A stretch of DNA of 32,810 bases, taken from NCBI GenBank assembly GCA_035285865.1, contig JAYKHS010000008.1, positions 1-32,810 on the forward strand, written 5' to 3'. The notes under the pieces were generated by a model. The model searched no databases. It had not been told where the DNA came from and worked only from the letters and a program-made list of their open reading frames with translations. Of the stretch, positions 3,462 to 32,810 are shown one piece after another. This DNA is from Candidatus Sericytochromatia bacterium. GTDB lineage: Bacteria > Cyanobacteriota > Sericytochromatia > S15B-MN24 > VGJW01. A program made the position numbers and the translations under genes. Within the stretch, counting starts at the first letter, position 1. Each line of letters begins with the position of its first letter.

Positions 3462-4910
3462 CTACTCGCCCTGGGCCTTGGAATACATCGCCTTGCCATC
3501 CATCGTGCGCAAGCGCTCGATGTGGACCCAGGTGCACACGTTGGCCACGGCTGAAAGGGCTGCCATGACATCAGCCTCGGATACGGCAGCGTCCGACACA
3601 TACCGGCAGCGATACCAGTTGACCATCCGGATGTCGGGCAGGGGCCCCGGCCAGACTTTGGTGCCACGGTTCGAAATCATGGCGAGGCGCATCCCGCCGG
3701 CTTCAGGAGGCACCGGCGGCAATACGGCCAGGTCCTGATGTTCGACGAAGATATCGAGACCGCGCGTCTCGAGCAGCCCAGAGTTTGGCGTGCGGGCCTC
3801 GGCTCGGCGCTGCATGACGGAACCGGCAGGCGTTGCAGGCAGGATGGCGGGGATGGACGTAGCCGGCAGATTCTCGATGAGGTTTGCCGTGAATGCGGCG
3901 GATGTGGCGCTGCCCCCCAGGTCTGCCGTCCGAACTCCTTCTGCCAGCGTGGTCTCAAGGGCCTTCTCGATGCGGCGGGCCGTTTCACCCAGCCCGAGAT
4001 GGCGAACCATCTGGATCGCCGCGAGCAGCAAGGCGGTCGGGTTGGCCACGCCCTTGCCGGCGATGTCCGGTGCGGAGCCGTGCACGGCCTCGAAGACGGC
4101 GATGCCATCGCCCAGGTTGCCCGACGGAGCCACGCCAAGGCCACCGACCAGCCCGGCACAGAGGTCGCTCACGATGTCTCCGTAGAGATTGGGCAACACC
4201 ACGACATCGAAGCGGGTCGGGTCTTTGACAAGCTGCATGCAGAGGTTGTCCACGAGGATGTCGTCGGCTGCAATCTCCGGGAACTGGGCGGCGACCTCAC
4301 GGAAACATTCGAGGAAGAGGCCGTCCGTCAGCTTGTGGATGTTGGCCTTGTGCACGCAGGTCACGCGCTTGCGGCCCTGGTCCCGCGCCATCTCGAAGGC
4401 GCGCAGGCAGGCAGCCGTCGAACCTGGGCGGGTAATGATCTTCAGGCCCTGGGCCACGTCCGGCGTCTGGAAGTGCTCGATCCCGCCATAGGTGTCCTCG
4501 ACATTTTCCCGAACCAGCAGAATGTCGATGTTCTCGTAGCGGCTCGGGATGCCCGGCAGCGACCGGATGGGGCGGACGTTCGCATAAAGTTCGAGCCCCT
4601 TGCGGATCGTCACGTTGACGCTCTTGTGGCCGCTGCCCGATGGCGTTTCGGTCGGTCCCTTGAGCGCGATGCGGTGCTGTGCGATGGCGGCCATGGTGCT
4701 GTCCGGGAGGCCGGTAGGATGCACGTCGGTACAGCAAAGGCCTGCAGGATGGACCTGCCAATCGATTGGCGCACCGGCGGCTTCGAGGATGTCCCGGACG
4801 CACGCCGTGATTTCCGGGCCGATGCCGTCGCCGGGGATGAGCACGACCGGAACGGTGGTGACGCCCCGGGGCGAGGTCGTGGCCGGATCGGATACGGACT
4901 GATCGGGCAT
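3462..4910 (-). CDS. icd: Isocitrate dehydrogenase (~482 aa, with C-terminal extension domain)
   Basis: IPGDGIGPEI, SVNVTIRK, VHKANI, NLYGDIVSD and EAVHGSAPDIAG motifs; C-terminal MISNRGTKVWP domain; GAGGAG RBS before ATG 4910. Confidence 0.92.
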   Translation of the reverse strand: MPDQSVSDPATTSPRGVTTVPVVLIPGDGIGPEITACVRDILEAAGAPIDWQVHPAGLCCTDVHPTGLPDSTMAAIAQHRIALKGPTETPSGSGHKSVNVTIRKGLELYANVRPIRSLPGIPSRYENIDILLVRENVEDTYGGIEHFQTPDVAQGLKIITRPGSTAACLRAFEMARDQGRKRVTCVHKANIHKLTDGLFLECFREVAAQFPEIAADDILVDNLCMQLVKDPTRFDVVVLPNLYGDIVSDLCAGLVGGLGVAPSGNLGDGIAVFEAVHGSAPDIAGKGVANPTALLLAAIQMVRHLGLGETARRIEKALETTLAEGVRTADLGGSATSAAFTANLIENLPATSIPAILPATPAGSVMQRRAEARTPNSGLLETRGLDIFVEHQDLAVLPPVPPEAGGMRLAMISNRGTKVWPGPLPDIRMVNWYRCRYVSDAAVSEADVMAALSAVANVCTWVHIERLRTMDGKAMYSKAQGE

Positions 4911-20279: not shown

Positions 20280-22395
20280 CCACCTCGAGGGTGCGGCGGT
20301 CGGCGTACTCGTTCACGGCTGGCTGCCCGTTGGCTGCCAGATAGCGCTGGCTGATGCCGTTCGCCCGCTTGAAGGCGATGACGGCCTGTGCCGTGGCACC
20401 GTCGTACTGGCCGGAAGGCGAGACGGCATAGCCGAGGCGTCCGAGCGCGGCCTGCAGGTCGCGAATGGCGTCCGTCTGGGGTGAGCCGGGGCCCAGGGTG
20501 CCGTCCTGGGTGTAGCTGCGGATCTCGCCTTCGAACGCTGCCACGTTCGCTGCCGTCGCCAGCAGTCCGTACTGATTGGCCAACGCTTGCTGCCTCGCGT
20601 CGATGCCGCCGGAGGGCGTCGAGGGCATCGGGGCCGAGGGCGGAGTCGTGCTGGGCACGAGGCCCGAATCCGCGACGGGGATCATCGGGTTCGCCGCAGG
20701 GCGGGAGGGCGTGGGCGTCGGAGCCGGGCTACCGGTCGAAGGCACCATGCTGCCGACGGCCACGGGGATCATCGGATTGACCGGAGGAGCCGAGGGGGCC
20801 GGCGAGGGCACGAACGGAGCCTGGGGTTGCGTCGGCGGCTGGATCGGAGCCTGAGGCACCATCGGGGCTTGCGGCACGACGGGTGCGGCAGGCGCGGCCT
20901 GCAGCTTCTGGATCAGGCGCTGGAGGACCACCGGGCTGGCGTACTCGTTGATGGCCCACTGGCCGTCGGCTGCCTTGTAGGTCTGGCGCAGGCCCTCGGC
21001 CCGCTTGAAGGAGATGACGGCCTGGATCGTGGCGCCGTCGTACTGGCCCGTGACGGCGACGGGGAAGCCGAGGCGGGTGAGGGCCGTCTGCAGATCGCGG
21101 ACACCATCGGCCTTCCCGGTGCCGGGCCCGAGCGTGCCCTCGGCCTCATAGCCCTTGACCTCCGAGAGGAAGGCCTGGACGTTCTCGGCGGTTGCCAGCA
21201 GGCCATACTGCCGAGCGACGGCCTGGAAATCCGTCGCGCCGGGTGTGGCGGGCGGCTGGGTCGGTTGGGTCGGCGCCACAGGTGGTACGGGGGCGGGCGT
21301 GACGGGTGCAGGTGGCACGGGGGCCGGATTGGTCGGAGCAGGCTGCGTCGCGAGGGCGGACAGTTCACGCATGATCGACGCCAGCGTGTTGGGGTCGGCG
21401 TACTCGTTGATGGCCCACTGGCCATCGGCGGCCTTGTAGGACTGCTTGATGCCCCTCGCCTTCTTGTAGGCAATGACGGCCTGTCCGGTCGCGTCGTCCC
21501 ACGTCTTGCTGTCCGGGGCGGCGAACCCGAGCCGGCGCAGCGCGGCCTGCAGGTCGGCGACAGCCTGCTTCTGCGAGGTTCCGGGGCCGAGGGCTCCGCC
21601 AGCCTCGTAACCCTTGACCTCCGTCAGGAAGGCCTGGACGTTCTCGGCGGTGGCGAGGAGACCGTACTGGCGGGCAACGGCCTGGAAGTCGGTGGCACCG
21701 GGCGTTGCCGGAGGCTGCGGCACGGGCTGGGGTTGGGGAGTCGGCTGGGGCTGGGGCTGCGGCGCGGGCGAGCCCTGAAGGCGCGCCAGAATGGCCTGCA
21801 TCGTGCGGGGCTCCACGTACTCGTTGATGGCCCACTGCCCATCGGCACTGCGGTAGTTCTGCTGGATGCCGTTGTCGCGCTTGAAGCGCATCACCGCATC
21901 GGCCGTGGCTGCATCGAACTGGCCGTTGGCCTGCAGGGGATACCCGAGGCGCGCGAGGGCCGTCTGGAGGTCACGGACGGCTTCGGGGCTACCCGAGCCG
22001 GGGCCGATGACCTGCTGCTGCTGGTAGGATGCCACTTCGGCCCTGAAGGCCAGGATGTTCTCACGGGAGGGCCACAGCTTGTACTGCGTGGCAAGCGCCT
22101 GCTCCTCGGGGGACAGGGCAGGCTGGCCGGGCTGGGTCGGCTGCGCGGGCGGGGTCGCCGGCTTGCCGAAGAGGCCGGCAATCCAGTTGAAGATGCCGCG
22201 GAACAGCGAGACGATGCCGTTGACGATCGACGCGAAGACGTCTCCCGCGCCTTGGGGTGCCACGGCAGGCGGCTGCTGCTGGATGAGGTTCTGGTCGCCC
22301 GGGATCTGCCCCGGGGCGCCCGGCTGGGCCGGCATGCCGGCGCGGTTGTATCCGTACTGGGGGTTCGGCGAACCGCCGGGCGTTCCGGAAATCAT
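20248..22395 (-). CDS. Pro/Gln-rich protein with four peptidoglycan-binding (PGBD-like) repeat units
   Basis: Four copies of AVxDLQxALxRLGF/Y...AT..AV..F/YK...G, separated by Pro-rich linkers; no catalytic domain recognised. Confidence 0.85.
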   Translation of the reverse strand: MISGTPGGSPNPQYGYNRAGMPAQPGAPGQIPGDQNLIQQQPPAVAPQGAGDVFASIVNGIVSLFRGIFNWIAGLFGKPATPPAQPTQPGQPALSPEEQALATQYKLWPSRENILAFRAEVASYQQQQVIGPGSGSPEAVRDLQTALARLGYPLQANGQFDAATADAVMRFKRDNGIQQNYRSADGQWAINEYVEPRTMQAILARLQGSPAPQPQPQPTPQPQPVPQPPATPGATDFQAVARQYGLLATAENVQAFLTEVKGYEAGGALGPGTSQKQAVADLQAALRRLGFAAPDSKTWDDATGQAVIAYKKARGIKQSYKAADGQWAINEYADPNTLASIMRELSALATQPAPTNPAPVPPAPVTPAPVPPVAPTQPTQPPATPGATDFQAVARQYGLLATAENVQAFLSEVKGYEAEGTLGPGTGKADGVRDLQTALTRLGFPVAVTGQYDGATIQAVISFKRAEGLRQTYKAADGQWAINEYASPVVLQRLIQKLQAAPAAPVVPQAPMVPQAPIQPPTQPQAPFVPSPAPSAPPVNPMIPVAVGSMVPSTGSPAPTPTPSRPAANPMIPVADSGLVPSTTPPSAPMPSTPSGGIDARQQALANQYGLLATAANVAAFEGEIRSYTQDGTLGPGSPQTDAIRDLQAALGRLGYAVSPSGQYDGATAQAVIAFKRANGISQRYLAANGQPAVNEYADRRTLEVVMQRLQATLR
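20260..22105 (-). repeat. Four intragenic ~110-codon repeats (approx. 22105-21775, 21700-21360, 21240-20900, 20600-20260)
   Basis: Units 2 and 3 share QPPATPGATDFQAVARQYGLLATAENVQAFLxEVKGYEA. The DNA motif GTACTCGTTGATGGCCCACTG recurs near 20941, 21400 and 21817. Confidence 0.88.
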
Positions 22396-22532
22396 GCAGG
22401 GACCCTCGGGATGCAGGGGGAAAGGGGACTTGTCCAGTCTATAGGCTGCGCAAGGGCGCGGCCCGGTAAATCAGGACGGAAGAAGAGGTTAAGCTTCCCT
22501 GTGGATTGACGGCCGGCGGCCGAGGGAGTCCC

Positions 22533-25529
22533 ATGCCCGTCATGGGGGCGGAATCGAGCGGATGCGCGCGGGGGCGGGCCCCGGCGGGTACGCTGCGCGC
22601 CTGGGCTCTGGCGGTCGCCCTGGCGTTCTGCACGGGGGTTCTGAACCTGCCCGAGCCGTGCCGTGCCGCCACGCTGTACGACCCGGCGCTCGGCTGGCGG
22701 ACGCTGGCCACCGAGCACTTCCGCATCCACTATCCCGCAGCGGAGGAGCAGCGTGTCCAAGGCTACGCGCGAACGATGGAGCAGGTGCACCGCCGGCTGG
22801 TGGCGTGGCTCGGTGTCACGCCCTCGCAGCCGACGCAGGTGGTGTTGCTGGACCACGAGGATGTGGCCAACGGCTTCGCGCTGCCTCTGCCCAACAACGC
22901 GGTCTATGCCTACCTGACGCCGCCCGATGCGGACAAGCGCGAGTTCGGGTCCAACGCGTCCTGGTTCGAAGCCCTGTTCACCCATGAGTACACGCACGTC
23001 CTGCATTTCGAGACGACCGGCGGCCTGCCTGCCCTGGCGAATCGCATCCTTGGTCGGGTGCTGTACCCCAATCTCTCCCTGCCCTTCTGGATGTTCGAAG
23101 GCACGGCCGTCCTGGGGGAAACGGCCTTTTCGCAGGGGGGGCGCGGCGCAACGCCCTATTACGACATGGTGGCCCGGATGGCGGCACTGGCCGGTGATCT
23201 GCCCGGGTTGGATCGGGTCGGCTCCTACGGGGTCGGCCATTGGCCACAGGGCCTCGGCGTCTATGCCTTCGGGACGTTGTTCATGGAGTGGGCCGTCCTG
23301 CGGTGGGGGCCGGGCTTTCCGCGGCAACTGGCCGAAGCCTACGGCAGCGAACCGTGGCTGACGATCGAAGGGGTCTTTCGCAAGCAGACCGGTCTTTGGC
23401 TGTCCGAGGCTTGGGAGGCGTGGCGCTCCGACCAGCTCCGCCGGGCCACCCGCCAGCGCGACGCCTTGCTCGCGCAAGGCTCCCTGACGTCGTTCACGCG
23501 CGTGACGGACAAGGGCGTCCATCAACGCCGTCCCTTCCATCTTCCGGACGGGACGCTCGGTTGGCATGACTGGGACGGTCACGACTTTGCGCGCGTCGCG
23601 GGCGAAGCGGCATGGCCCGAGCGCCTGGCGCAGTGGGGCAAGGTCTTCGACACGCCGGTGCACCGCGATCCGGACGGCAATCGCCTGCTCTACACGGGCT
23701 TCGCGTCGCTCGATCGCTTCAGGCGTCATCGGGATCTCTTCGCGCTCGACCTGGCGGACGGGACCGTACGGCGTCTGACCCATGGGCTTCGGCTCGTCGA
23801 TGCCTTGCCGCTGCCCGGCGGACGGATCGTGGGGGTGGCCATCCGGGACGGTCGCCATGAGGTGGTGCGCTTGGACAGGGGAGGCAGCGTGCTGGGCTGG
23901 TCGGCCCTGCCCGAAGGCACCCAGCAGGCAGATGGCCTCGCGTGGGATGGCACGGCGGGTCGGGTGGTGGCCTCGCTTGCCGTCTCGGGAGTCCGGGACC
24001 TTTGGACCTGGACGCCGGGGGACGAGGCGTGGCGCCCGCTCACGCGCGATGCCGCGACAGACCATGATCCGTGCGTGGCCCCCGACGGTACGGTGTTGTA
24101 TGCCTCCGACCGGAACGGGGTCTGGAACCTCTACGCCCTGCCGCCCGGACAGTCCGCGTCCCTTCAGGTTACGCACGTGCTCGGGGGCGCGTTCGAGCCA
24201 GCCATTTCCCCGGATGGCCGGACGATTGCCTTCGTGCACTACGACGCCCGCGGCCACGACATCGTCACGGTGCCCTACGCGCCGTCATCCTGGCGACAGG
24301 TTCCGGGCCCCGTACAGGGTGTGCCCGACGGGGAGGGCGTCTTCGCCCCCCGTGCGGGAGGGGAAGCCGGGGCGGCGATCGCGGCCCACGTGGGCGTCGT
24401 GCGTGGGGCTCCCCCGGATGAGTCGGCGTGGCGCGTGGCCCCGTATGATCCCTTAGACTCGCTGCTTCCTAAGGCGTGGGTCGGCATCCTCGGCCAGGCC
24501 GACGAGGGTGGTGTCGGTGCAGGGGTGCAGTTGCTGGGCTCGGATGCCTTGCTGCAGCACGCACTCAGTCTGTCGCTGGGTGCCGGCCTGCTCAGCGGCC
24601 GCCCGTTCGCCGGGGTCTCCTGGACCTATGACGGGCTGCCGCCAACCATCGGCCTTGCTGCCGGCACAGGGACCCAACTCTACCCCGGTACGCCCGAGGA
24701 GGCCCGGTTGCAGGATCGGCTCGGGGTGTCCGTGACGCTGCCGGGTCTGCCCAGTCGCCTGCTGGCGATTCTGCGCCAGGACGGGGGATTCTGGACGTTG
24801 GCTGCCGATGCGGTCCGCAGCCGGGTCCTGCCCGGACGCGAGGCGTTGGTCAATCCGACGGATGGCCTGCCGATTCCGGGCACGACGACGACACTCTCCC
24901 TGCGGTACCAGTACGGGGACTCCCTGCGCTTCCTGCGATCCGTCTCGCCGGAGCTCGGTCGCCTGGCCGTTGCCGAGGTGACGATGTCGGATCCCCTCTG
25001 GGGTTCCGTCAGTCGGTACCTCAGGGTCGGAACGGAGGGCCGGGCCTTCGTCCGACTTCCGTGGCCGCATCACGTGCTCGCCTTGCGGGGGCTGGTCGCC
25101 GCGACGGAGGGGCCACAGGCCGGGCAGTTGGCCGTGGGGGGCTACGGTGCTTCCTCGGCGCTCGACAATGTGGACGTCCGGGCCATGGGAGACGTGCGCG
25201 CGCTTCCGGTCCGGGGCCATCCGGCACGGGCGGCCGGGCGCGTGGCGGGGGGCACCATGGAGTGGAGGATGCCCTTGTTCGAGGTGCAAGCCGGCCTCGG
25301 CATCCTGCCGGTCTTCGTCGATCGCCTCGCGGGTGCCCTGTTCGTCGACGGGGCCTGGTTCCGGTCCGACAACCGACCGGATGGCGCCTTCCTGGTCGGC
25401 GGGGGGGGCGAACTGCGCCTGAAGATGCAGGTCAGTTCCGTGCCCATCGAGTGGCGTCTGGGGGCGGCGATGCCCGTGCCGGAGGGTGGCGTGCCGCAGG
25501 TATTCCTGCAACTCGGGACGTTCTTCTGA
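22533..25529 (+). CDS. Outer-membrane fusion: HEXXH metallopeptidase + TolB-like (PD40) propeller + Omp85/BamA-like barrel
   Basis: WRTLATEHFRIHY, FTHEYTH...WMFEG, YASDRNGVWNLY, GAFEPAISPDG, LPVRGH (VRGY-like) and a C-terminal QLGTFF beta-signal. Start uncertain (22506/22533/22542). Confidence 0.85.
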   Translation: MPVMGAESSGCARGRAPAGTLRAWALAVALAFCTGVLNLPEPCRAATLYDPALGWRTLATEHFRIHYPAAEEQRVQGYARTMEQVHRRLVAWLGVTPSQPTQVVLLDHEDVANGFALPLPNNAVYAYLTPPDADKREFGSNASWFEALFTHEYTHVLHFETTGGLPALANRILGRVLYPNLSLPFWMFEGTAVLGETAFSQGGRGATPYYDMVARMAALAGDLPGLDRVGSYGVGHWPQGLGVYAFGTLFMEWAVLRWGPGFPRQLAEAYGSEPWLTIEGVFRKQTGLWLSEAWEAWRSDQLRRATRQRDALLAQGSLTSFTRVTDKGVHQRRPFHLPDGTLGWHDWDGHDFARVAGEAAWPERLAQWGKVFDTPVHRDPDGNRLLYTGFASLDRFRRHRDLFALDLADGTVRRLTHGLRLVDALPLPGGRIVGVAIRDGRHEVVRLDRGGSVLGWSALPEGTQQADGLAWDGTAGRVVASLAVSGVRDLWTWTPGDEAWRPLTRDAATDHDPCVAPDGTVLYASDRNGVWNLYALPPGQSASLQVTHVLGGAFEPAISPDGRTIAFVHYDARGHDIVTVPYAPSSWRQVPGPVQGVPDGEGVFAPRAGGEAGAAIAAHVGVVRGAPPDESAWRVAPYDPLDSLLPKAWVGILGQADEGGVGAGVQLLGSDALLQHALSLSLGAGLLSGRPFAGVSWTYDGLPPTIGLAAGTGTQLYPGTPEEARLQDRLGVSVTLPGLPSRLLAILRQDGGFWTLAADAVRSRVLPGREALVNPTDGLPIPGTTTTLSLRYQYGDSLRFLRSVSPELGRLAVAEVTMSDPLWGSVSRYLRVGTEGRAFVRLPWPHHVLALRGLVAATEGPQAGQLAVGGYGASSALDNVDVRAMGDVRALPVRGHPARAAGRVAGGTMEWRMPLFEVQAGLGILPVFVDRLAGALFVDGAWFRSDNRPDGAFLVGGGGELRLKMQVSSVPIEWRLGAAMPVPEGGVPQVFLQLGTFF

Positions 25530-25680
25530 CGGAAGAACCGCGTGCATCCGGTTCCCCCGGCCGGAGTCGCGGCCGCTTGCCGCGTCGTGACGATTCCCGG
25601 TCTGCAGGGCACAGAGGGTAGGTGCAGCCAACCGGTGGTCACGGCCACCCGTGCGTCCTTTTCCGGGAGTCCAAGGAAAC

Positions 25681-26607
25681 ATGCTTGTCGGCAGATCGGT
25701 GCCGTTGCGATTCGTCATTCGGCACTCCTGGCGACGGCAACTCCTGCTCGTCGTGCTGTCGGCGTTGCTGATTCTCTCGGGTGTGGCCGGAGAGGACCCG
25801 TTGGTCGCCATCGTCGGTCGCATCGAGTCCATCCTGGGTACCGCAGTCTCGATTCTGCTGGGCTTCCGGGTGAACGCGGCCTATGACCGCTGGTGGGAAG
25901 CACGCCGGGCGTGGGGTGCTTTCGTCAACGAGTCGCGGACCCTGGGCCGACAGGTCGTGAGCCTGCTTTCGGGCCATTTTCATGCCGATGCGGACGAGGC
26001 TGCCATCGCCGAGACGCGGAGGACCCTGCTGCTGGGCCAGGCCGGGGTGGCCCATGCCCTCAAGAACCATCTCAGGCGTCAGCCTGACCTGCAGGCCACG
26101 GAACTGGGCCGGTTCCTGCCCCCGGACGCGATGGCCCGTGTCCTGTCGTCACAGCACGTGCCGTTGGCCATTCTGGTCTGGATGGCCAAGACGTTGCAGT
26201 TCGCCTTTGAGGACAGGCACACCGAGGATTTTCGCCACATGCAGATTGATGCGACCTTCAGTCGCATCACGGATGCCATCGGGGCCATGGACCGCATCAA
26301 GACGACCGTCTTTCCGCGTCAATACGCCGTGTTCGGGACGATGTTCACCGCCTTGTTCGTCTACCTGCTGCCCTTGGCCCTCGTGCCCTCGGTCGGCTGG
26401 CTTGCCGTGCCCTTTGTGATGAGCGTGGGGTTCATCTTCTTTGCGCTGGACGGGGTGGCATGGGGTATCGAGAGTCCCTTCGAAAACACCTACAACGACA
26501 CGCCCATGGCCAGCCTCGCCCGTGGGGTCGAGATCCACATGCGCGAGTTGCTCGAGGAGACGGATCGACCCCAGGCCCTCGAACCGGTCGATGGCATCCT
26601 GATGTAG
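25681..26607 (+). CDS. Bestrophin-family anion channel (YneE/VCCN-like)
   Basis: LLGFRVNAAYDRWWEARRAWG, DRIKTTVFP, IESPFEN; AAGGA RBS before ATG 25681. Confidence 0.92.
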   Translation: MLVGRSVPLRFVIRHSWRRQLLLVVLSALLILSGVAGEDPLVAIVGRIESILGTAVSILLGFRVNAAYDRWWEARRAWGAFVNESRTLGRQVVSLLSGHFHADADEAAIAETRRTLLLGQAGVAHALKNHLRRQPDLQATELGRFLPPDAMARVLSSQHVPLAILVWMAKTLQFAFEDRHTEDFRHMQIDATFSRITDAIGAMDRIKTTVFPRQYAVFGTMFTALFVYLLPLALVPSVGWLAVPFVMSVGFIFFALDGVAWGIESPFENTYNDTPMASLARGVEIHMRELLEETDRPQALEPVDGILM

Positions 26608-26625: not shown

Positions 26626-26654
26626 TTGACGGAGGCTCCGCCGGTCGCTACGAT
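26626..26654 (+). promoter_or_regulatory. Sigma70-type promoter TTGACG-N17-TACGAT; leaderless start at 26662
   Basis: -35 at 26626-26631, -10 at 26649-26654, ATG 7 nt downstream. Confidence 0.75.
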
Positions 26655-26661
26655 GCCCGGA

Positions 26662-27234
26662 ATGAGCGATGCCCCGTCCCCCCTGCGGTTGAACCTCGAC
26701 GAGGCCGTCATCCTGCTCATCGGTGTCCGTCTGCTTGGCGAGATGGTGGAGACCATCGAGATCAACGGCCGGTCGCAGGAGCGCCTGATTCCCGCCCTCA
26801 TCGACAAGCTGGCGGGTGTCGTCCCCCAGGAGCTGCAGCGGATCACGGGCGAGATCATCGAGGAAATCCTCGTCAGCCACTGGGACGAGAGTGGCGGGCG
26901 TCCCGCCCAGGATGACGAGGAATCCTTTCCGGGCCCGATGTACGCCATCGAGGAGACGCTGCCGGTGCTGTTCGAGGCCATCGCTGCCGGGCGAACGGTG
27001 GCGGTCGACTATTACTCGATGGCCAGCGAGGACGTGGGCACAGTCCATCTGGACCCTTACGGCATCAAGCAGGTCGGCGATCTCTACTGGGTGGTCGCCT
27101 ATGCCCACGAGCGGGGCGAGCGCAGCGTCTTTCGCGTCGATCGCATCAAGTCGCTCGAAATCACGCAGAAGACCTTCGACAAGCCTGATGCCTTCCGCAT
27201 CGACGAGTTCTTCTCGGACGAATCCGCAAACTGA
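26662..27234 (+). CDS. WYL-domain protein without recognisable HTH or WCX domain
   Basis: LFEAIAAGRTVAVDYYS...LDPYGI...YWVVAY...RSVFRVDRIKSL...FDKP. Confidence 0.88.
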   Translation: MSDAPSPLRLNLDEAVILLIGVRLLGEMVETIEINGRSQERLIPALIDKLAGVVPQELQRITGEIIEEILVSHWDESGGRPAQDDEESFPGPMYAIEETLPVLFEAIAAGRTVAVDYYSMASEDVGTVHLDPYGIKQVGDLYWVVAYAHERGERSVFRVDRIKSLEITQKTFDKPDAFRIDEFFSDESAN

Positions 27235-27356: not shown

Positions 27357-27722
27357 CTACTTCTTCTTGAACTGCAGGACGTAGGCGACGACGTCCTTGC
27401 GGTCCTGCGGCTTCAGGAAGCCCCAGGCGGGCATCTGGGCGGAAGCGCCGCCACCGTAGCCGGCGCCGCCCTTCTCGACCATCTTGGCCACGTTGGCCTC
27501 GACGCCCTTGGTGCGCTTGAACTCGCCCTTCCAGAAGTTGGCCGCGTTTGCGAGGACGGGCTTCTTGGTGGCCTCGCTGCCGTGGCAGGTGGCGCAGTTG
27601 GCCTGGAATACCTTCTTGCCGTTGGCGACGTTGCCACCCGCGGCGTGGGCGGGCTGGACCGTCAGGGCGAGGGCGATGGCCAGGGGCGTGACGACGCCGC
27701 TGGCGGCAAGGATGTGGCGCAT
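27357..27722 (-). CDS. Periplasmic monoheme cytochrome c (c6/c553-like)
   Basis: Signal peptide ending AHA; NGKKVFQANCATCH (CxxCH); QMPAW axial Met; DVVAYV; AGGAG RBS. Confidence 0.92.
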   Translation of the reverse strand: MRHILAASGVVTPLAIALALTVQPAHAAGGNVANGKKVFQANCATCHGSEATKKPVLANAANFWKGEFKRTKGVEANVAKMVEKGGAGYGGGASAQMPAWGFLKPQDRKDVVAYVLQFKKK

Positions 27723-27759: not shown

Positions 27760-27765
27760 ATTGTA
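27760..27765 (-). promoter_or_regulatory. Putative -10 box TACAAT for the cytochrome c gene
   Basis: Near-consensus hexamer 37 nt upstream of the ATG in a GC-rich intergenic region. Confidence 0.55.
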
Positions 27766-27789
27766 CACCACGCTTGCCTGTCGGTGGCA

Positions 27790-29514
27790 TCAGCGGGCCG
27801 TCTCCGTCGGCGTCGTCCACGCGGAACGGCTGGTCAGGTGAAGGCCGAGCCAGCTCCGCAGACCTCCGGCCTCATGGATGGCAGCGTGGATCGTATCCAG
27901 AGGGTCCGTCACCCGCATCCGCTCGGCCGGGCCGCCCTCCGGCCGGCGCAGCACCAACTCCTGGTTTCCGCCTCGGGTCCACGGCCGGACGCCCGCTCCG
28001 GCAAGTGCCTCAGGAACGCCGGGGGCCCATTCGTCCGCGATGACGACCACCACGCCCAAGGACGCGAGCGCTTGCGCCCAGGCCTCTGCCCGAGGCCCGA
28101 GATCCAGGGTGCGCGGCAGGCGCAGGGCCGCAAAGACCCCGGGGGGCGGACCCAACTGCCCCTGCAAGCTGCGGGCGGCGTCCGTAACCGTCACGCGCTG
28201 TTTCTCGGCAGGCACCACAAGTGTGCATTCAGGCTCCCAGAGCACGGGGGGATCGCCGGCATCGGGCTGTCGTGCCTCAATCCACGTGCCTCGATGGCTC
28301 GGGAGATGCTTGCCTGACCACGGCACGGGCAAGGGCGACAGGTGGGGCTCCCCGGACCAACGAGCCAGCATCCATCGCCCGATTGTCTCCGGAGAGGCCA
28401 GCCAGGCGTCGGTCCCGGACCATGCCCCGGTGCCCAGCCAAGTCCCGCCGGCCGGACCAGGAGGCAGCGGTTCATCGGCGCCAGTCAGCATCCCGCCTGC
28501 CCGCAGCCACGCATCCAGATGGCCGACGGCGGCCACGCGGCGCAACTCGAGCGGGCTGGCCATCATCAGGCGCAGCGGACCCGCCTGCCAGGGGGAACGC
28601 GGTGCGCTGGCCTCCAGCCATCGGGCCACGAGGTCGGCCGTGCCGGTTCCCGACTCGCCCAGCAGGACGCCGGCATCCGTCAGGCCATCGAGCGCAGCCA
28701 CGCCTTGGGGGACCGCAGCCGCGCCGGGTGGCAGCACGCGCGGAACGCAGGCTGACCAGGCAAGGCTCAGGGCGTGTTCCGGTCCTTCCCGCCACGGCGT
28801 GGGCGGGGTGCCGCGTCCGAGTGTCTCGAGCGCGTCTCCTGCCATGCCATCGCCCGGGAAGACGACCGACACGGCGCCCCCGCGGATTAATGCATGGATG
28901 CACCGGACCCGGTCCTCGACGGGAAGGCCTGCGGCACCCGGTCCCTCCATCAGCACGATGTGGCCTTGCCAGGCCCCCGGATCAGCCGTCGCCCACAGCG
29001 CGAGCGCCAGATCCGTGCCATCCGGACTTTGTGCGCGATCGGCCCTGACATGCACGGGGCAGAGCGGTGGCACGGTCACGGTCATCGGGAGGCCGCGATC
29101 GAGGTGCAGCAGGTCGGCGGTCCGGGCCGGTAGTACCAGGCACCCGAAGGCACCACCGGCGGTCAGTTCGGGATGGTTGCCGACGATCAGGCGCCCCGGG
29201 GCCGCGAGATTCTCCAGCACGACGCGACCCGGCGAAGCACCGCCGGCCTCCGTGACCCACCAGCCTTCCTCGCGCAGCGTCACGGCTGCACCGACGATCT
29301 CGGGGCGATGCGTGCCGCGATCGAGGATGGCGAGGCGCAGCGCGCCGTGCAGCGGGCTCGGGTGTCGGGCCGGCAACTCCCCCAGGCCCTCGGCCAGATC
29401 CAAGGAACCCGCGGCATCGACGACCACGGCGTCCGGGCTCAGCGCCACCGGTGCCCCGGGGATCAGGATGCCCCCGGCCCAGGCCCGATCCAGGATGCGG
29501 TCGACGCTACGCAT
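27790..29514 (-). CDS. Aconitase-family homologue (574 aa) lacking Fe-S ligands and catalytic motifs
   Basis: Colinear aconitase scaffold motifs: AAPGRLIVG..., GGAFG, EGPGAAGLPVEDR, GAVSVVFP, WLASPET, LGVVVVIA, GVRP, EAGGL. ATG overlaps the RluA stop by 8 nt. Confidence 0.8.
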   Translation of the reverse strand: MRSVDRILDRAWAGGILIPGAPVALSPDAVVVDAAGSLDLAEGLGELPARHPSPLHGALRLAILDRGTHRPEIVGAAVTLREEGWWVTEAGGASPGRVVLENLAAPGRLIVGNHPELTAGGAFGCLVLPARTADLLHLDRGLPMTVTVPPLCPVHVRADRAQSPDGTDLALALWATADPGAWQGHIVLMEGPGAAGLPVEDRVRCIHALIRGGAVSVVFPGDGMAGDALETLGRGTPPTPWREGPEHALSLAWSACVPRVLPPGAAAVPQGVAALDGLTDAGVLLGESGTGTADLVARWLEASAPRSPWQAGPLRLMMASPLELRRVAAVGHLDAWLRAGGMLTGADEPLPPGPAGGTWLGTGAWSGTDAWLASPETIGRWMLARWSGEPHLSPLPVPWSGKHLPSHRGTWIEARQPDAGDPPVLWEPECTLVVPAEKQRVTVTDAARSLQGQLGPPPGVFAALRLPRTLDLGPRAEAWAQALASLGVVVVIADEWAPGVPEALAGAGVRPWTRGGNQELVLRRPEGGPAERMRVTDPLDTIHAAIHEAGGLRSWLGLHLTSRSAWTTPTETAR

Positions 29515-30391
29515 GCGCAGCCAGCTCCCGGAGGCTGGTCGGCAGGGGGGGCAGGTCGTCGGGCCAATGCGCCTCGAAGTTCGTCGCCGCCCCGGTGCGC
29601 GGGTGGGGGAACGTGAGGCGGTGCGCATGCAGCGCCATTCGTCCCGCGGAGCCTCCGGGACCGTAGCGCGTGTCCCCGACCAAGGGGTGCCCCAGGTGCG
29701 CCATGTGGACACGGATCTGGTGGGTCCGACCGGTTTCGAGCGTCAGCAAGAGCCACGTGCCCGAGGTCCGGGGACAAGGGGCCGAGGCGAGGATGCGGGT
29801 GCGGGCCTCCTGCCCGCCCGCAGGATCGACACGACGGTCGCCCGTCTCGGGATCACGGCCGATGGGGGCATCCACCTCGGCGGGCCAACTGGTGCGCGTG
29901 CCGGGGACCAAGGCCACGTAGGTGCGGCGGATCTCGCGTCGGGTCATGGCCTGCCCCAGCAGGGAAGCCGCCCAAGGATGGCGCGCGGCCAGCAGCAGGC
30001 CCGAGGTCTCCCGGTCGAGGCGTTGCGCGAGGTGCGCGGCCCCGTAGCGTTCGGCCAGGGCATCCGCGAGCGTGCCGGAGGCCACGCCATGCGTCGGGTG
30101 GCAGACGAGGCCCGCCGGCTTGTCGAGCACGATGACGTCCTCGTCCTCGTGGACGACGGTGAGGGGGACCACGGTCTGTCCGGAGGGACGGGCGGGTTCC
30201 CAGCGCACCTCGATGCGGGCTCCGGGGGTCGGGCGATGCCAGGGCAGGGCCGACACGCCGTCCTGAGTGATGCCTCCCTCGGCCCAGATCCGCCGCAGCA
30301 GGCGCCGCGGCAAGCCCACGCGCTCGCGCAGCAGGGCGTGCAGCGTCAGCGCGGCCTCGGCCTCGCCCGCCGTCAGCTCCAGCAGCCTCAT
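29507..30391 (-). CDS. RluA/RluD-family pseudouridine synthase
   Basis: DKPAGLVCHP, QRLDRETSG (catalytic Asp), LETGRTHQIRVH, GHPLVGD..YG and ALHA motifs. Confidence 0.94.
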   Translation of the reverse strand: MRLLELTAGEAEAALTLHALLRERVGLPRRLLRRIWAEGGITQDGVSALPWHRPTPGARIEVRWEPARPSGQTVVPLTVVHEDEDVIVLDKPAGLVCHPTHGVASGTLADALAERYGAAHLAQRLDRETSGLLLAARHPWAASLLGQAMTRREIRRTYVALVPGTRTSWPAEVDAPIGRDPETGDRRVDPAGGQEARTRILASAPCPRTSGTWLLLTLETGRTHQIRVHMAHLGHPLVGDTRYGPGGSAGRMALHAHRLTFPHPRTGAATNFEAHWPDDLPPLPTSLRELAAHA

Positions 30392-30397
30392 GGCGCC

Positions 30398-30414
30398 ATT
30401 GTACGTGTTACGCT
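30398..30414. promoter_or_regulatory. Back-to-back -10 boxes for two leaderless divergent genes
   Basis: Minus: TACAAT (30403-30398) + 6 nt + ATG 30391. Plus: TGtTACGCT (30406-30414) + 7 nt + ATG 30422. The intergenic gap is only 30 bp. Confidence 0.72.
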
Positions 30415-30421
30415 GGGCCTG

Positions 30422-31339
30422 ATGAGGCAGGTCTTCGTGACGGGCGCGGCAGGCTGCGTGGGTCACTACGTCCTGGAGCACCTGCTCGACCTGCCCGACT
30501 GCCATCCCGTGGTGCTGCTCCGGGACCCGAGTCGCCTGCGGGCCGACCTGCGCGAGCGGGTCACGTGCATCGAAGGCGATTTGGCCCGGCCGGAACCGTG
30601 GTTGCCCCGCCTGGCCGAGGTCGATGCCGCCGTGCTGGTCGCGACCAGCTGGGGTGGTCCCTTGGCCCGGCAAGTCAACGTGGAGACGACCCACGCGATG
30701 CTGAAGGCGATGCCGCGCGCCGGCCGGATCGTCTACTTCTCGACGGCGAGCATGCTGGACCCCGACGGTTCGCTTGACCCGGCTGCCGGCGTGCTCGGCA
30801 CCGACTACATCCGCACGAAGCACGAAGCGATCTCTACCTTGGATGACGGCCGGGTGGTGCCGGTCTTCCCCACCGTCGTCCTCGGGGGAGACGATCGGCA
30901 TCCCCGTTCGGCCGCAACGGCCGGTCTGCCTGGCCTGAAGCCTTGGCGTCCCCTGCTCGCCCGGTTGTCCTTCGACGGGGTTTTTCATGTCATCCATGCC
31001 AGCGACCTCGCGCGGTTTGCCGTCTGGTTGCTGGATCATCAGCCTCCGGAGGGTCGGCTGGTCGTCGGCCTGCCCGCCCTGACGGTCCGGGAGGTGGCGA
31101 GCACGCTTGCCGGAGTGCTCGGGGCACGGCCTGCGGGACCGTGGGATCTGTCCGCCCTGCTCGAGCGCCTGCCGCGCCTGATTCCCTGGAAGTTCACGTC
31201 CTGGGACCTGCATTGCCTGGCGAGACGCCACTTTCGCTATCCCGTGGTGGATCTGGCTGGCCTGACAGGGCGGCTGGATTATCCGGACCTGATGGCGATC
31301 TTGAGGTCGGATCCGCGGTTGGTTCCCGAGAAGGGGTGA
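30422..31339 (+). CDS. NAD-dependent epimerase/dehydratase (extended SDR)
   Basis: VFVTGAAGCVG Rossmann motif, YFSTAS, YIRTK (YxxxK), IHASDLA. Confidence 0.88.
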   Translation: MRQVFVTGAAGCVGHYVLEHLLDLPDCHPVVLLRDPSRLRADLRERVTCIEGDLARPEPWLPRLAEVDAAVLVATSWGGPLARQVNVETTHAMLKAMPRAGRIVYFSTASMLDPDGSLDPAAGVLGTDYIRTKHEAISTLDDGRVVPVFPTVVLGGDDRHPRSAATAGLPGLKPWRPLLARLSFDGVFHVIHASDLARFAVWLLDHQPPEGRLVVGLPALTVREVASTLAGVLGARPAGPWDLSALLERLPRLIPWKFTSWDLHCLARRHFRYPVVDLAGLTGRLDYPDLMAILRSDPRLVPEKG

Positions 31340-31767: not shown

Positions 31768-32684
31768 GGTCAAGTCCCAAGACGTGGTGTAACTTCCGCA
31801 ATCCTCTCTGGGGATGACTGTACCTCTCAGGCCACGAGCATCATCGGCTCCTCCTTGGCGTTGCCGTCCAGAAGCTCGAGACTGACGAGGCTCAGGTAGC
31901 GCTTGCCCACCAGCCACTCGTCCGACTGCTCGGCAAGCACCATCCCGACGAGGCGCGTCATCGCCTGACGGTTCGGGAAGATCCCCACCACCGCACATCT
32001 GCGGCCGATCTCTCGGTTCAGGCGCTCAAGGGGATTCGTGGACCGAATCTTCCGCCAATGCGCTTGCGGGAAGGCCATGTACGCCAGGATGTCCTCCTCG
32101 GCCTCGTTCAGCAACCGGGACACATTGGGGAACGACCGCGCAAGCTTGTCCGCCGTCCGCCGCAACTGGGCACGCGCAGCCTCCTTGTCCGGCTGCGAGA
32201 AGACCGTCCGCACCGCCGCACCCACCATCCCCTGCTGATGCTTGCCCACCCGCGACAGCACGTTGCGCATGAAGTGCACCGTACAACGCTGCCAAGTCGC
32301 CCCGGTGAGCACCTCGGCAATCGCACGCTGCAGTCCGGCATGGGCATCGCTGATGACCAGCTGCGTCCCGTGCAGCCCCCGTCCCACAAGCCCGCGCAGG
32401 AAGTTCACCCACGCCTCGTGGCTTTCTGCTGCACCCACCTCGAGACCCAGGACCTCGCGGTATCCCTCGCTGTTCACGCCATAGGCCACCACCACGGCAC
32501 TCGAGACCACCCGCTTCCCCTCACGGACCTTCTCTACCGTGGCATCCAGCCACAGGTACGGATACGCCTTGTCCAACGGGCGCTCCCGAAACGCCGATAC
32601 TTCCTCATCCAGTCCTTGGCAGACCCGGCTGACCTCGCTCCGGGAAAGGCTCTCGACTCCCAGAGCCTGCACCAGGTCCTCCAC
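31768..32684 (-). mobile_element. IS256-family element, 3' part, interrupted by IS3
   Basis: Transposase fragment plus a typical IS256-like end TTACACCACGTCTTGGGACTTGACC (minus strand, ending about 31768). Confidence 0.9.
31827..32684 (-). pseudogene. IS256 (Mutator-like) transposase, N-terminus cut off by IS3 insertion
   Basis: YLWLDA, LVISDAH, QRCTVH and STNPLERLNREI (DDE) motifs. The first 17 residues of ORF 31827..32735 come from the IS3 IR. Confidence 0.92.
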
Positions 32685-32810
32685 TGACCTGCTCCCCATA
32701 AACCGCCCCATCCAAAACTGGGATTTCCCGGGCACAAGCCCAGAAGGAGATCCAGATGAAGACCAGCAGGTTCAGCGAGGAGCAGATCATCAAGGCCATC
32801 AAGGAGGCCG
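32685..32810 (+). mobile_element. Left end of an IS3-family (IS407-like) element
   Basis: IR TGACCTGCTCCCCATAAACCGCCCCATCCAAAACTGGGAT at 32685-32724, AAGGAG RBS, then the OrfA start. Confidence 0.92.
32756..32810 (+). CDS. IS3-family OrfA N-terminus (runs off window)
   Basis: MKTSRFSEEQIIKAIKEA, typical of the IS407-group OrfA start. Confidence 0.9.
   Translation, partial: MKTSRFSEEQIIKAIKEA

Follow-up and report, generated by a model that had tools for sequence, protein, structure and literature searches.

Why would a bacterium keep an aconitase gene in frame after the active site of its product has been lost? The question is raised by a locus of a Candidatus Sericytochromatia bacterium (Cyanobacteriota; assembly GCA_035285865.1, contig JAYKHS010000008.1, positions 1 to 32,810), and these 32,810 nucleotides are hereafter called the window. 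A 574-codon gene on the minus strand starts within the end of rluA, a pseudouridine synthase gene, and an original prediction made from the sequence alone took its product, the pseudo-aconitase, for an intact but catalytically dead aconitase coupled to the synthase. Judged from sequence comparison and a structure model, the protein is very probably a selected pseudoenzyme lacking predicted catalysis. We read it as a pseudoenzyme and not as a pseudogene because the fold is kept, the active site is lost, the frame is intact under selection and the genome carries a separate AcnA.

Fold, active site and constraint of the pseudo-aconitase

Searches with the single sequence gave weak signals. The pseudo-aconitase matched Pfam PF00330 at E 1.4e-5, with 24.7 bits below the cut-off of 28.7, and its best family match was PRK07229 (E 8.1e-8). 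It missed the cut-offs of the PRK07229 and TIGR01342 hidden Markov models (31.3 vs 612 and 25.8 vs 719 bits). The alignment with 1aco (E 4.6e-4) placed GNHPEL opposite GTDSHT. A profile-profile comparison by hhalign with the family-level clade described below covered 549 columns at a probability of 98.6%. The AlphaFold model reached a predicted local distance difference test score (pLDDT) of 78.7 and a predicted template-modelling score (pTM) of 0.75, with low confidence at residues 389-419 (the linker) and in the C-terminal tail; the underlying alignment included intact aconitases, by which the model was biased. Foldseek matched it to mitochondrial aconitase (E 1.8e-23, template-modelling score (TM) 0.70-0.72), to LeuD-type proteins (probability 1.0) and also to 2b3x, 3snp and 6vcd, and ESM Atlas with its own model gave a TM of 0.64. 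Predicted structure, Foldseek and hhalign thus agreed on the four-domain aconitase fold with a C-terminal swivel domain, and the aconitase scaffold from end to end, as originally proposed, was borne out. The aconitase homology, weak in single-sequence searches, is by profile and predicted fold clear and beyond chance. The protein did not fall into the AcnA/iron regulatory protein (IRP) subfamily, since PRK12881 scored 9.5 bits and TIGR01341 was not matched, and no match to the AcnX Pfam domain was found at E up to 1.

None of the motifs DSH, GSC, NRN and GSSR occurs in the sequence. The five peptides that the original prediction had named as their replacements were located at residues 112 (GNHPE), 286 (GESGT), 345 (GADEP), 361 (GTGAW) and 473 (GPRAE), with GADEP and GTGAW placed within a gapped, poorly aligned stretch. 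All five Cys (125, 152, 205, 256, 430) lie outside the ligand positions and there is no CxxC, as had been claimed. Because residues 257-429 are free of Cys, the loss of the three [4Fe-4S] ligands does not depend on that poorly aligned stretch. The columns of the catalytic Ser (GSSR) and His (DHN, HQ, DSH) are occupied by P474, R66, G96 and E116. Three of the four substrate arginine columns hold G357, T362 and A476, and the fourth, R448, varies within the genus. Overall, 0-2 of 22 active-site columns were kept in five genus sequences vs 20-22 in nine intact relatives. The column labels are mitochondrial aconitase numbers that we mostly assume to be right; the alignment with 1aco is consistent with those of H147 and D165-H167, and S642 and R644 occur in titles of the Protein Data Bank (PDB). 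Compared with an intact relative the protein also has ten deletions of 6-22 residues, and its net charge in the genus is -13 to -19 with an isoelectric point (pI) of 5.2-5.7.

The frame was nevertheless kept under purifying selection, as the original prediction had implied. The ratio of nonsynonymous to synonymous substitution rates (dN/dS, NG86 values) was 0.19-0.28 in 6/6 genus pairs at dS 0.42-1.98, and 0.19 in the unsaturated pair G024-G026 (dS 0.42). For comparison, rluA gave 0.14-0.24 and the neighbouring short-chain dehydrogenase/reductase (SDR) gene 0.10-0.20. Neither a broken frame nor neutral evolution was found, the frame being open in 4/4 genus genomes. Contigs of three out of four sequencing runs span the gene with no indel, and the variants listed, at 30 places, changed 26 codons (14 synonymous, 12 missense, 0 stop). 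The constraint is real but moderate and therefore the gene is not a young pseudogene; its relatives in the genus have lost the active-site columns too.

Among the four species 243/574 positions (42%) are invariant, from 58% in domain 1 to 34% in domain 3 and 18% in the linker, the highest and lowest values being those of domain 1 and the linker and the domain bounds being our estimates. Of 21 old active-site positions, 6 are invariant (p 0.15 against the 42% of the whole protein), so the old cleft is under no extra constraint. New invariant motifs have appeared: GNHP, PWQ, SPLE-RR and, in the swivel domain, RPWTRGG...RRPEGG, with the patches R510-W512-T513-R514-G515-G516 and R523-R524-P525-E526-G527-G528. 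Trp is invariant at 20/23 positions. The residues F+Y+M+I+N+K make up 5.4% of the protein, within the lowest 2% of 325 genes, and this composition, with the net acidic charge, suggests that drift driven by guanine-cytosine content along the genus stem gave way to renewed constraint.

Distribution and probable descent from PRK07229-type aconitases

A protein search returned 4 relatives among 7993 candidates, one of them named Candidatus Sericytochromatia. When 47 genomes of the class were examined, the full-length protein was present in 4/4 genomes of the window's genus (51-65% identity; genomes of 2.7-2.9 Mb). Shorter or split homologues were absent among 7996 candidates of 30-313 residues, a range that leaves out longer or fused forms. 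The window's genome has a separate intact 907-aa AcnA with DSH, SCTN, CTTC, NRNF and GSSRD, and AcnA is present in 7/8 genomes of the family. The exception is G025, where the idea that the genome lacks a real aconitase and that the pseudo-aconitase is perhaps its enzyme was set aside for a contig break at the place of AcnA: one neighbour of AcnA lies 349 bp from the contig start and the other is missing too. The absence was not taken as real because it coincides with a contig end.

Across the class, AcnA occurs in families f1, f6 and f7 and a mitochondrial-like type of about 750 aa in f2 and f3; f3 has an extra AcnB, and genome G020 a PRK07229 type with intact motifs. Second weak PF00330 matches in f3 were tried as pseudoenzymes and rejected, being AcnB enzymes. 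The genome of the window, 83% complete, gave no LeuC match. We also observed an isocitrate dehydrogenase paralogue in G021, G022, G023 and G027 (loci L191, L194, L197 and L201) with KAEIMR/KSEVMR/KAEVMR and SNLFGD in place of KANIMK and PNLYGD; a normal paralogue stands alongside in 3/4 of these genomes, and the altered one is possibly a regulatory subunit.

The origin of the pseudo-aconitase became apparent from another genus of the same family. There (G027) the order is SDR, rluA, a 95-aa open reading frame (ORF) and then a 645-aa PRK07229-type protein, P0008 (L061:5642-7579), in which all three Cys ligands are missing. Six relatives of P0008 (P0050-P0055, 55-79% identity) and the metagenome locus L105, which reads rluA, small ORF, aconitase, form one clade with it, the family-level clade. 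P0053 keeps 14/22 active-site columns: the three Cys are present, and the equivalents of H101, H147 and S642 are lost. The other six forms keep 7-10 of the 22. Retained throughout the clade are R447, R452 and R644 (7/7), R580 (6/7), D100 and D165, and His101 is replaced by Arg in 7/7 sequences, as in many of the obgE lineage considered below. P0008 and P0053 score above the PRK07229 cut-off (622 and 742 bits vs 612), and P0008 and P0050-P0055, proteins without catalytic residues, are annotated as aconitate hydratase. Of the Arg in P0008, 27/57 are invariant. For its structure, AlphaFold on a 7-row alignment was unusable (pLDDT 55.5), and ESM Atlas gave pTM 0.90 and TM 0.97 to aconitases. The two versions of the 95-aa ORF (L061:5296-5583, L105:357-641) share 76% identity, and in L061 the ORF begins with an ATG that overlaps the stop codon of rluA. 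Neither Pfam nor NCBIfam matched it, and no clear counterpart was seen in the genus of the window.

In a 23-row tree that left out other degenerate rows, the genus nested in the family-level clade (SH-aLRT 100) on a stem of 6.2 changes/site; this tree, like the larger one discussed further on, was a quick search without bootstrap. The genus shares 16 columns with the family-level clade vs 6 with intact enzymes (p 0.026). Synteny together with these shared columns favours orthology of the genus protein and the family-level clade. By sequence, then, the genus protein closes a graded series that starts from the intact enzyme and passes through P0053 and the Cys-free P0008 group to a form without cleft residues. 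The original prediction was right about the aconitase fold; the descent from the PRK07229 family and the end position in this series had been overlooked.

A second lineage parallels this one. A representative search brought up other degenerate forms of PRK07229, and in ESM Atlas the clusters nearest by features had Eisenbacteria and Myxococcota as commonest phyla. The genome of P0009 (G047) and 30 relatives gave a match in 22/31, namely 17 full-length dead forms (L238-L254 and L260-L262 among the loci) without DSH, GSC and CxxCxG, 4 with intact motifs and 1 fragment. G047 has a high-scoring AcnA-like gene as well. In 17/17 genomes the dead form lies upstream of obgE: in 14 the two genes are side by side, and in the other 3 icd intervenes. 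Among 27 intact PRK07229 loci, some with short flanks, none had rluA, obgE or icd nearby. A support of 91 neither shows nor rejects a single origin for all dead PRK07229 forms; separate losses are favoured because an intact copy in G051 stands behind aspC, as the dead copies of the obgE lineage do. PRK07229-type aconitases might have been recruited repeatedly as dead accessory factors of 50S maturation, with RluA in Sericytochromatia and ObgE elsewhere, an idea that we find doubtful. If true, the Sericytochromatia series preserves intermediates from enzyme to scaffold.

Gene neighbourhood and predicted transcript layout

The features of the locus in the window are as follows.

27790-29514, minus strand: pseudo-aconitase gene, 574 aa, with a predicted four-domain aconitase fold derived from PRK07229/TIGR01342, swivel domain and linker shortened, cluster ligands and catalytic residues gone
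29507-30391, minus strand: rluA, RluA/RluD-family pseudouridine synthase, 294 aa
29507-29514, minus strand: start/stop overlap of 8 nt, ATGCGTAG, identical in 4/4 genus genomes
30398-30403, minus strand: TACAAT, a -10-like hexamer 6 nt 5' of the rluA ATG, in 4/4 genus genomes
27760-27769, minus strand: GGTGTACAAT, an extended -10-like element 3' of the pseudo-aconitase stop, in 4/4 genus genomes
27357-27722, minus strand: monoheme cytochrome c gene downstream of the pseudo-aconitase gene, given as context
30422-31339, plus strand: NAD-dependent epimerase/SDR gene, divergent from rluA, a synteny marker also in G027 and G022

The 574-residue translation has no internal stop, and the overlap holds both the pseudo-aconitase start and the TAG stop of rluA, so that the uninterrupted frame and its overlap with rluA stood as originally described. 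RluA itself scored 203.7 bits against TIGR00005 (cut-off 192.7) and retains the catalytic Asp126 in QRLDRETSG, invariant in 13/13 aligned relatives; a second RluA-family member of the genome is on contig C30. The 8-nt overlap points to translational coupling of rluA and the pseudo-aconitase gene, and TACAAT to a leaderless rluA promoter. Likely, GGTGTACAAT is the cytochrome c gene's own promoter, and therefore the pseudo-aconitase gene is likely the last of its transcript. Taking these three elements together, we predict a two-gene transcript that ends with the pseudo-aconitase gene. The -10-like elements were seen by eye, and a strict scan of the locus for sigma-70 promoters and terminators found nothing. 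Polarity would not explain the intact frame here, because a conserved -10-like element of its own precedes the cytochrome c gene.

The order SDR, rluA, pseudo-aconitase, cytochrome c, WYL is common to 4/4 genus genomes. Only 30 bp (30392-30421) separate the divergent start codons of rluA and SDR. The WYL gene (26626-27234, plus strand) encodes a stand-alone WYL-domain protein with an identity of about 90% among the genus genomes; the gene is convergent with that of cytochrome c. Further away, the real frame at 22506-25529 (plus strand) is a 1007-aa PD40-repeat gene; the minus-strand ORFs 22392-24257 and 24453-25832 were dropped as dN/dS controls, being its shadow frames. A PRK09222-type isocitrate dehydrogenase gene (3462-4859, minus strand; below cut-off) lies about 23 kb downstream of the pseudo-aconitase gene on the same strand, and at a comparable distance in G024 and G025. 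A Mutator-family transposase gene (31827-32735, minus strand) marks the contig end. Subtilase-family matches number 18-22 per 2.7-2.8 Mb genome in G000, G025 and G026.

Possible roles and comparison with known systems

What the pseudo-aconitase does can be proposed only tentatively: its job may be tied to RluA or ribosome maturation, as a non-catalytic protein partner in maturation of the 50S subunit. An ancestral PRK07229-type aconitase would have been made redundant by AcnA and would have lost its active site stepwise, beginning with His and Ser, followed by Cys and finally by Arg. Rapid change along the genus stem would have given way to renewed constraint, with outer surfaces used in place of the old cleft. 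Predicted to be co-translated with an RluA-type synthase, the protein would possibly assist maturation of the large ribosomal subunit; the identity of the partner is the least certain element of this explanation. Upstream of 6/7 located copies stands rluA, directly or with one small ORF between, and the pairing with RluA pointed out originally gained from synteny beyond the genus (G027 and L105). A coupling in function has weak support, and the link to RluA is suggestive only.

A number of observations weigh against a selected partner of RluA. The gene order of the genus is conserved across a much larger block, and because the whole block keeps its order, adjacency within the genus says little. 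In G027 and L105 the 95-aa ORF and a separate GGAGG ribosome-binding site stand between rluA and the aconitase, and in G023 the rluA orthologue is followed by sucC. The sister genus, with G022 (98% complete) and G023 (86%), yielded no copy, and the copy in G021 is a 47-residue fragment, with the TQDATG motif intact, that adjoins galT and not rluA. To our knowledge, RluA-family synthases are stand-alone enzymes. A 60-row tree with 15 other degenerate rows, which carries a long-branch warning, drew the genus to long branches and away from the family-level clade. Among 325 G000-G024 gene pairs (from about 0.4 of the 2.9 Mb of G024, a few false frames included) the median dN/dS was 0.11, and the pseudo-aconitase stood at the 85th percentile of dN/dS and the 17th of identity. 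The parallel of rluA and obgE is a post hoc observation; in the obgE lineage 2/17 copies are split, and there polarity upstream of an essential gene alone could keep the frame.

A job in the tricarboxylic acid cycle is rather unlikely. Here the protein would be a non-catalytic regulator that binds AcnA, isocitrate dehydrogenase or citrate synthase, and the family-level form would sense citrate via its arginines. AcnA is indeed intact in the window's genome and in 7/8 family genomes, the family-level clade keeps the substrate arginines, D100 and D165, icd adjoins the dead gene in 3/17 obgE-lineage genomes, and an AcnA-isocitrate dehydrogenase model is in the PDB (9a4j). A precedent exists in Synechocystis, where AcnSP, an acnB-derived peptide, changes aconitase kinetics (PMC7336809). 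However, the gene does not adjoin acnA, icd or citrate synthase in the genus (icd is about 23 kb away), its substrate arginines are lost there, and G022 and G023 carry AcnA with no pseudo-aconitase found. In 14/17 obgE-lineage genomes icd is absent from the locus and the dead gene is retained all the same, and the arginine argument is weakened by the 27/57 Arg of P0008 that are invariant anyway.

The constitutive apo-type RNA binder of the original prediction, resembling IRP or CitB, now looks unlikely for the window's protein. Favouring such a role, the family-level relatives are Cys-free with cleft arginines kept, and the genus has the invariant Arg-rich patch of the swivel domain, the domain in which the RNA-binding residues of CitB presumably lie as well. 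These residues are R741/Q745 (PMC11317140). RNA binding is described for apo-aconitases, and IRP2 is homologous to aconitase without being an enzyme (PMC3048577, PMC11317140). In IRP1, contacts with the iron-responsive element are made by residues 436-442 and 534-544 and Arg780, the catalytic and RNA sites overlap (PMC3048577, PMC4184891), and Arg536 and Arg541 are described as critical (PMC7181819). IRP-type RNA binding is unlikely here because IRP1 uses cleft residues that are lost in the genus. We mapped the IRP1 numbering onto the pseudo-aconitase by motif, on a correspondence that we assume. On this mapping the equivalents of T438/N439, R536, R541 and R780 (PMC3048577, PMC4184891, PMC7181819) are lost and variable in the genus. 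The protein is also acidic, a weak point given the pI of 6.15 of an earthworm IRP (PMC4184891); it is outside the AcnA/IRP subfamily, and the genome's AcnA could fill the role. Rfam found no RNA family in the window or three related loci, which says nothing on binding itself. Because their arginines are kept, the family-level forms are better candidates for binding of RNA or citrate.

Equally improbable is a slowly decaying relic, expressed with rluA and selected only for harmless folding. Evolution faster than in most genes, the extreme composition, the ten deletions, the lack of a match in the sister genus and the split copies of the obgE lineage would fit it. Against it stand the lack of any stop or frameshift across four species with dS up to near 2 in genomes of 2.7-2.9 Mb, a dN/dS near that of rluA, the 243 invariant positions and the probable place of the gene at the end of its transcript. 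Bacteria normally delete useless genes well before such divergence. Still less probable is that domain 1 carries a new site, at which the protein would act as an enzyme or bind a ligand without a cluster. That domain is the most conserved, and at former active-site positions or next to them D33, R97, N113-H114-P115 and R211 do not vary; yet the cleft walls from domains 3 and 4 are variable, the old site is not conserved above background, no Cys or His cluster exists and aconitase X is the weaker structural match.

A non-catalytic partner in 50S maturation, the role that we tentatively prefer, has to be set beside the systems already known. Titles and abstract openings, with most subscription papers outside this search, contained no bacterial full-length pseudo-aconitase and no link between an aconitase and a pseudouridine synthase. 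The graded series allows one to ask which moonlighting property of aconitases (ligand, RNA or protein binding) outlives catalysis, and it exposes an annotation trap, as P0008 passes the NCBIfam cut-off as aconitate hydratase without an Fe-S ligand. The window's own clade is narrow, one genus of non-photosynthetic cyanobacterial relatives. Non-catalytic aconitases are known from animals (IRP2).

With the active PRK07229/TIGR01342 aconitate hydratases (single chains of about 640 aa) the pseudo-aconitase has domain order and fold in common; it differs from them in about 20% identity, about 65 residues less in length and the absence of cluster ligands, catalytic Ser/His and substrate arginines. 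Aconitase X retains its Cys ligands, unlike the pseudo-aconitase. It has the superfamily fold with a rewired active site (7cnq, 7cnr) and matched the pseudo-aconitase at a Foldseek E of about 1e-7 and TM 0.37-0.40. A non-catalytic aconitase scaffold, as here, is described for IRP2, apo-IRP1 and CitB of B. subtilis and S. aureus (PMC3048577, PMC11317140). However, these belong to the AcnA/IRP subfamily, and the cleft residues by which IRP1 contacts RNA are lost in the pseudo-aconitase. AcnSP of Synechocystis PCC 6803 is likewise an aconitase-derived, non-catalytic and cyanobacterial regulator (PMC7336809), but it is a 44-aa AcnB fragment, whereas the pseudo-aconitase has all four domains and belongs to another subfamily. 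In S. pombe, Aco2 is an aconitase-bL21 (Mrpl49) fusion essential for mitochondrial translation, which ties an aconitase to the large ribosomal subunit and translation (PMC8258696, citing Jung et al. 2015). That is a eukaryotic gene fusion, and here there is gene adjacency only, with the aconitase part dead. Compared with all of these, and as far as its residues tell, the pseudo-aconitase behaves as a pseudoenzyme scaffold that is outside the active PRK07229 and the IRP families.

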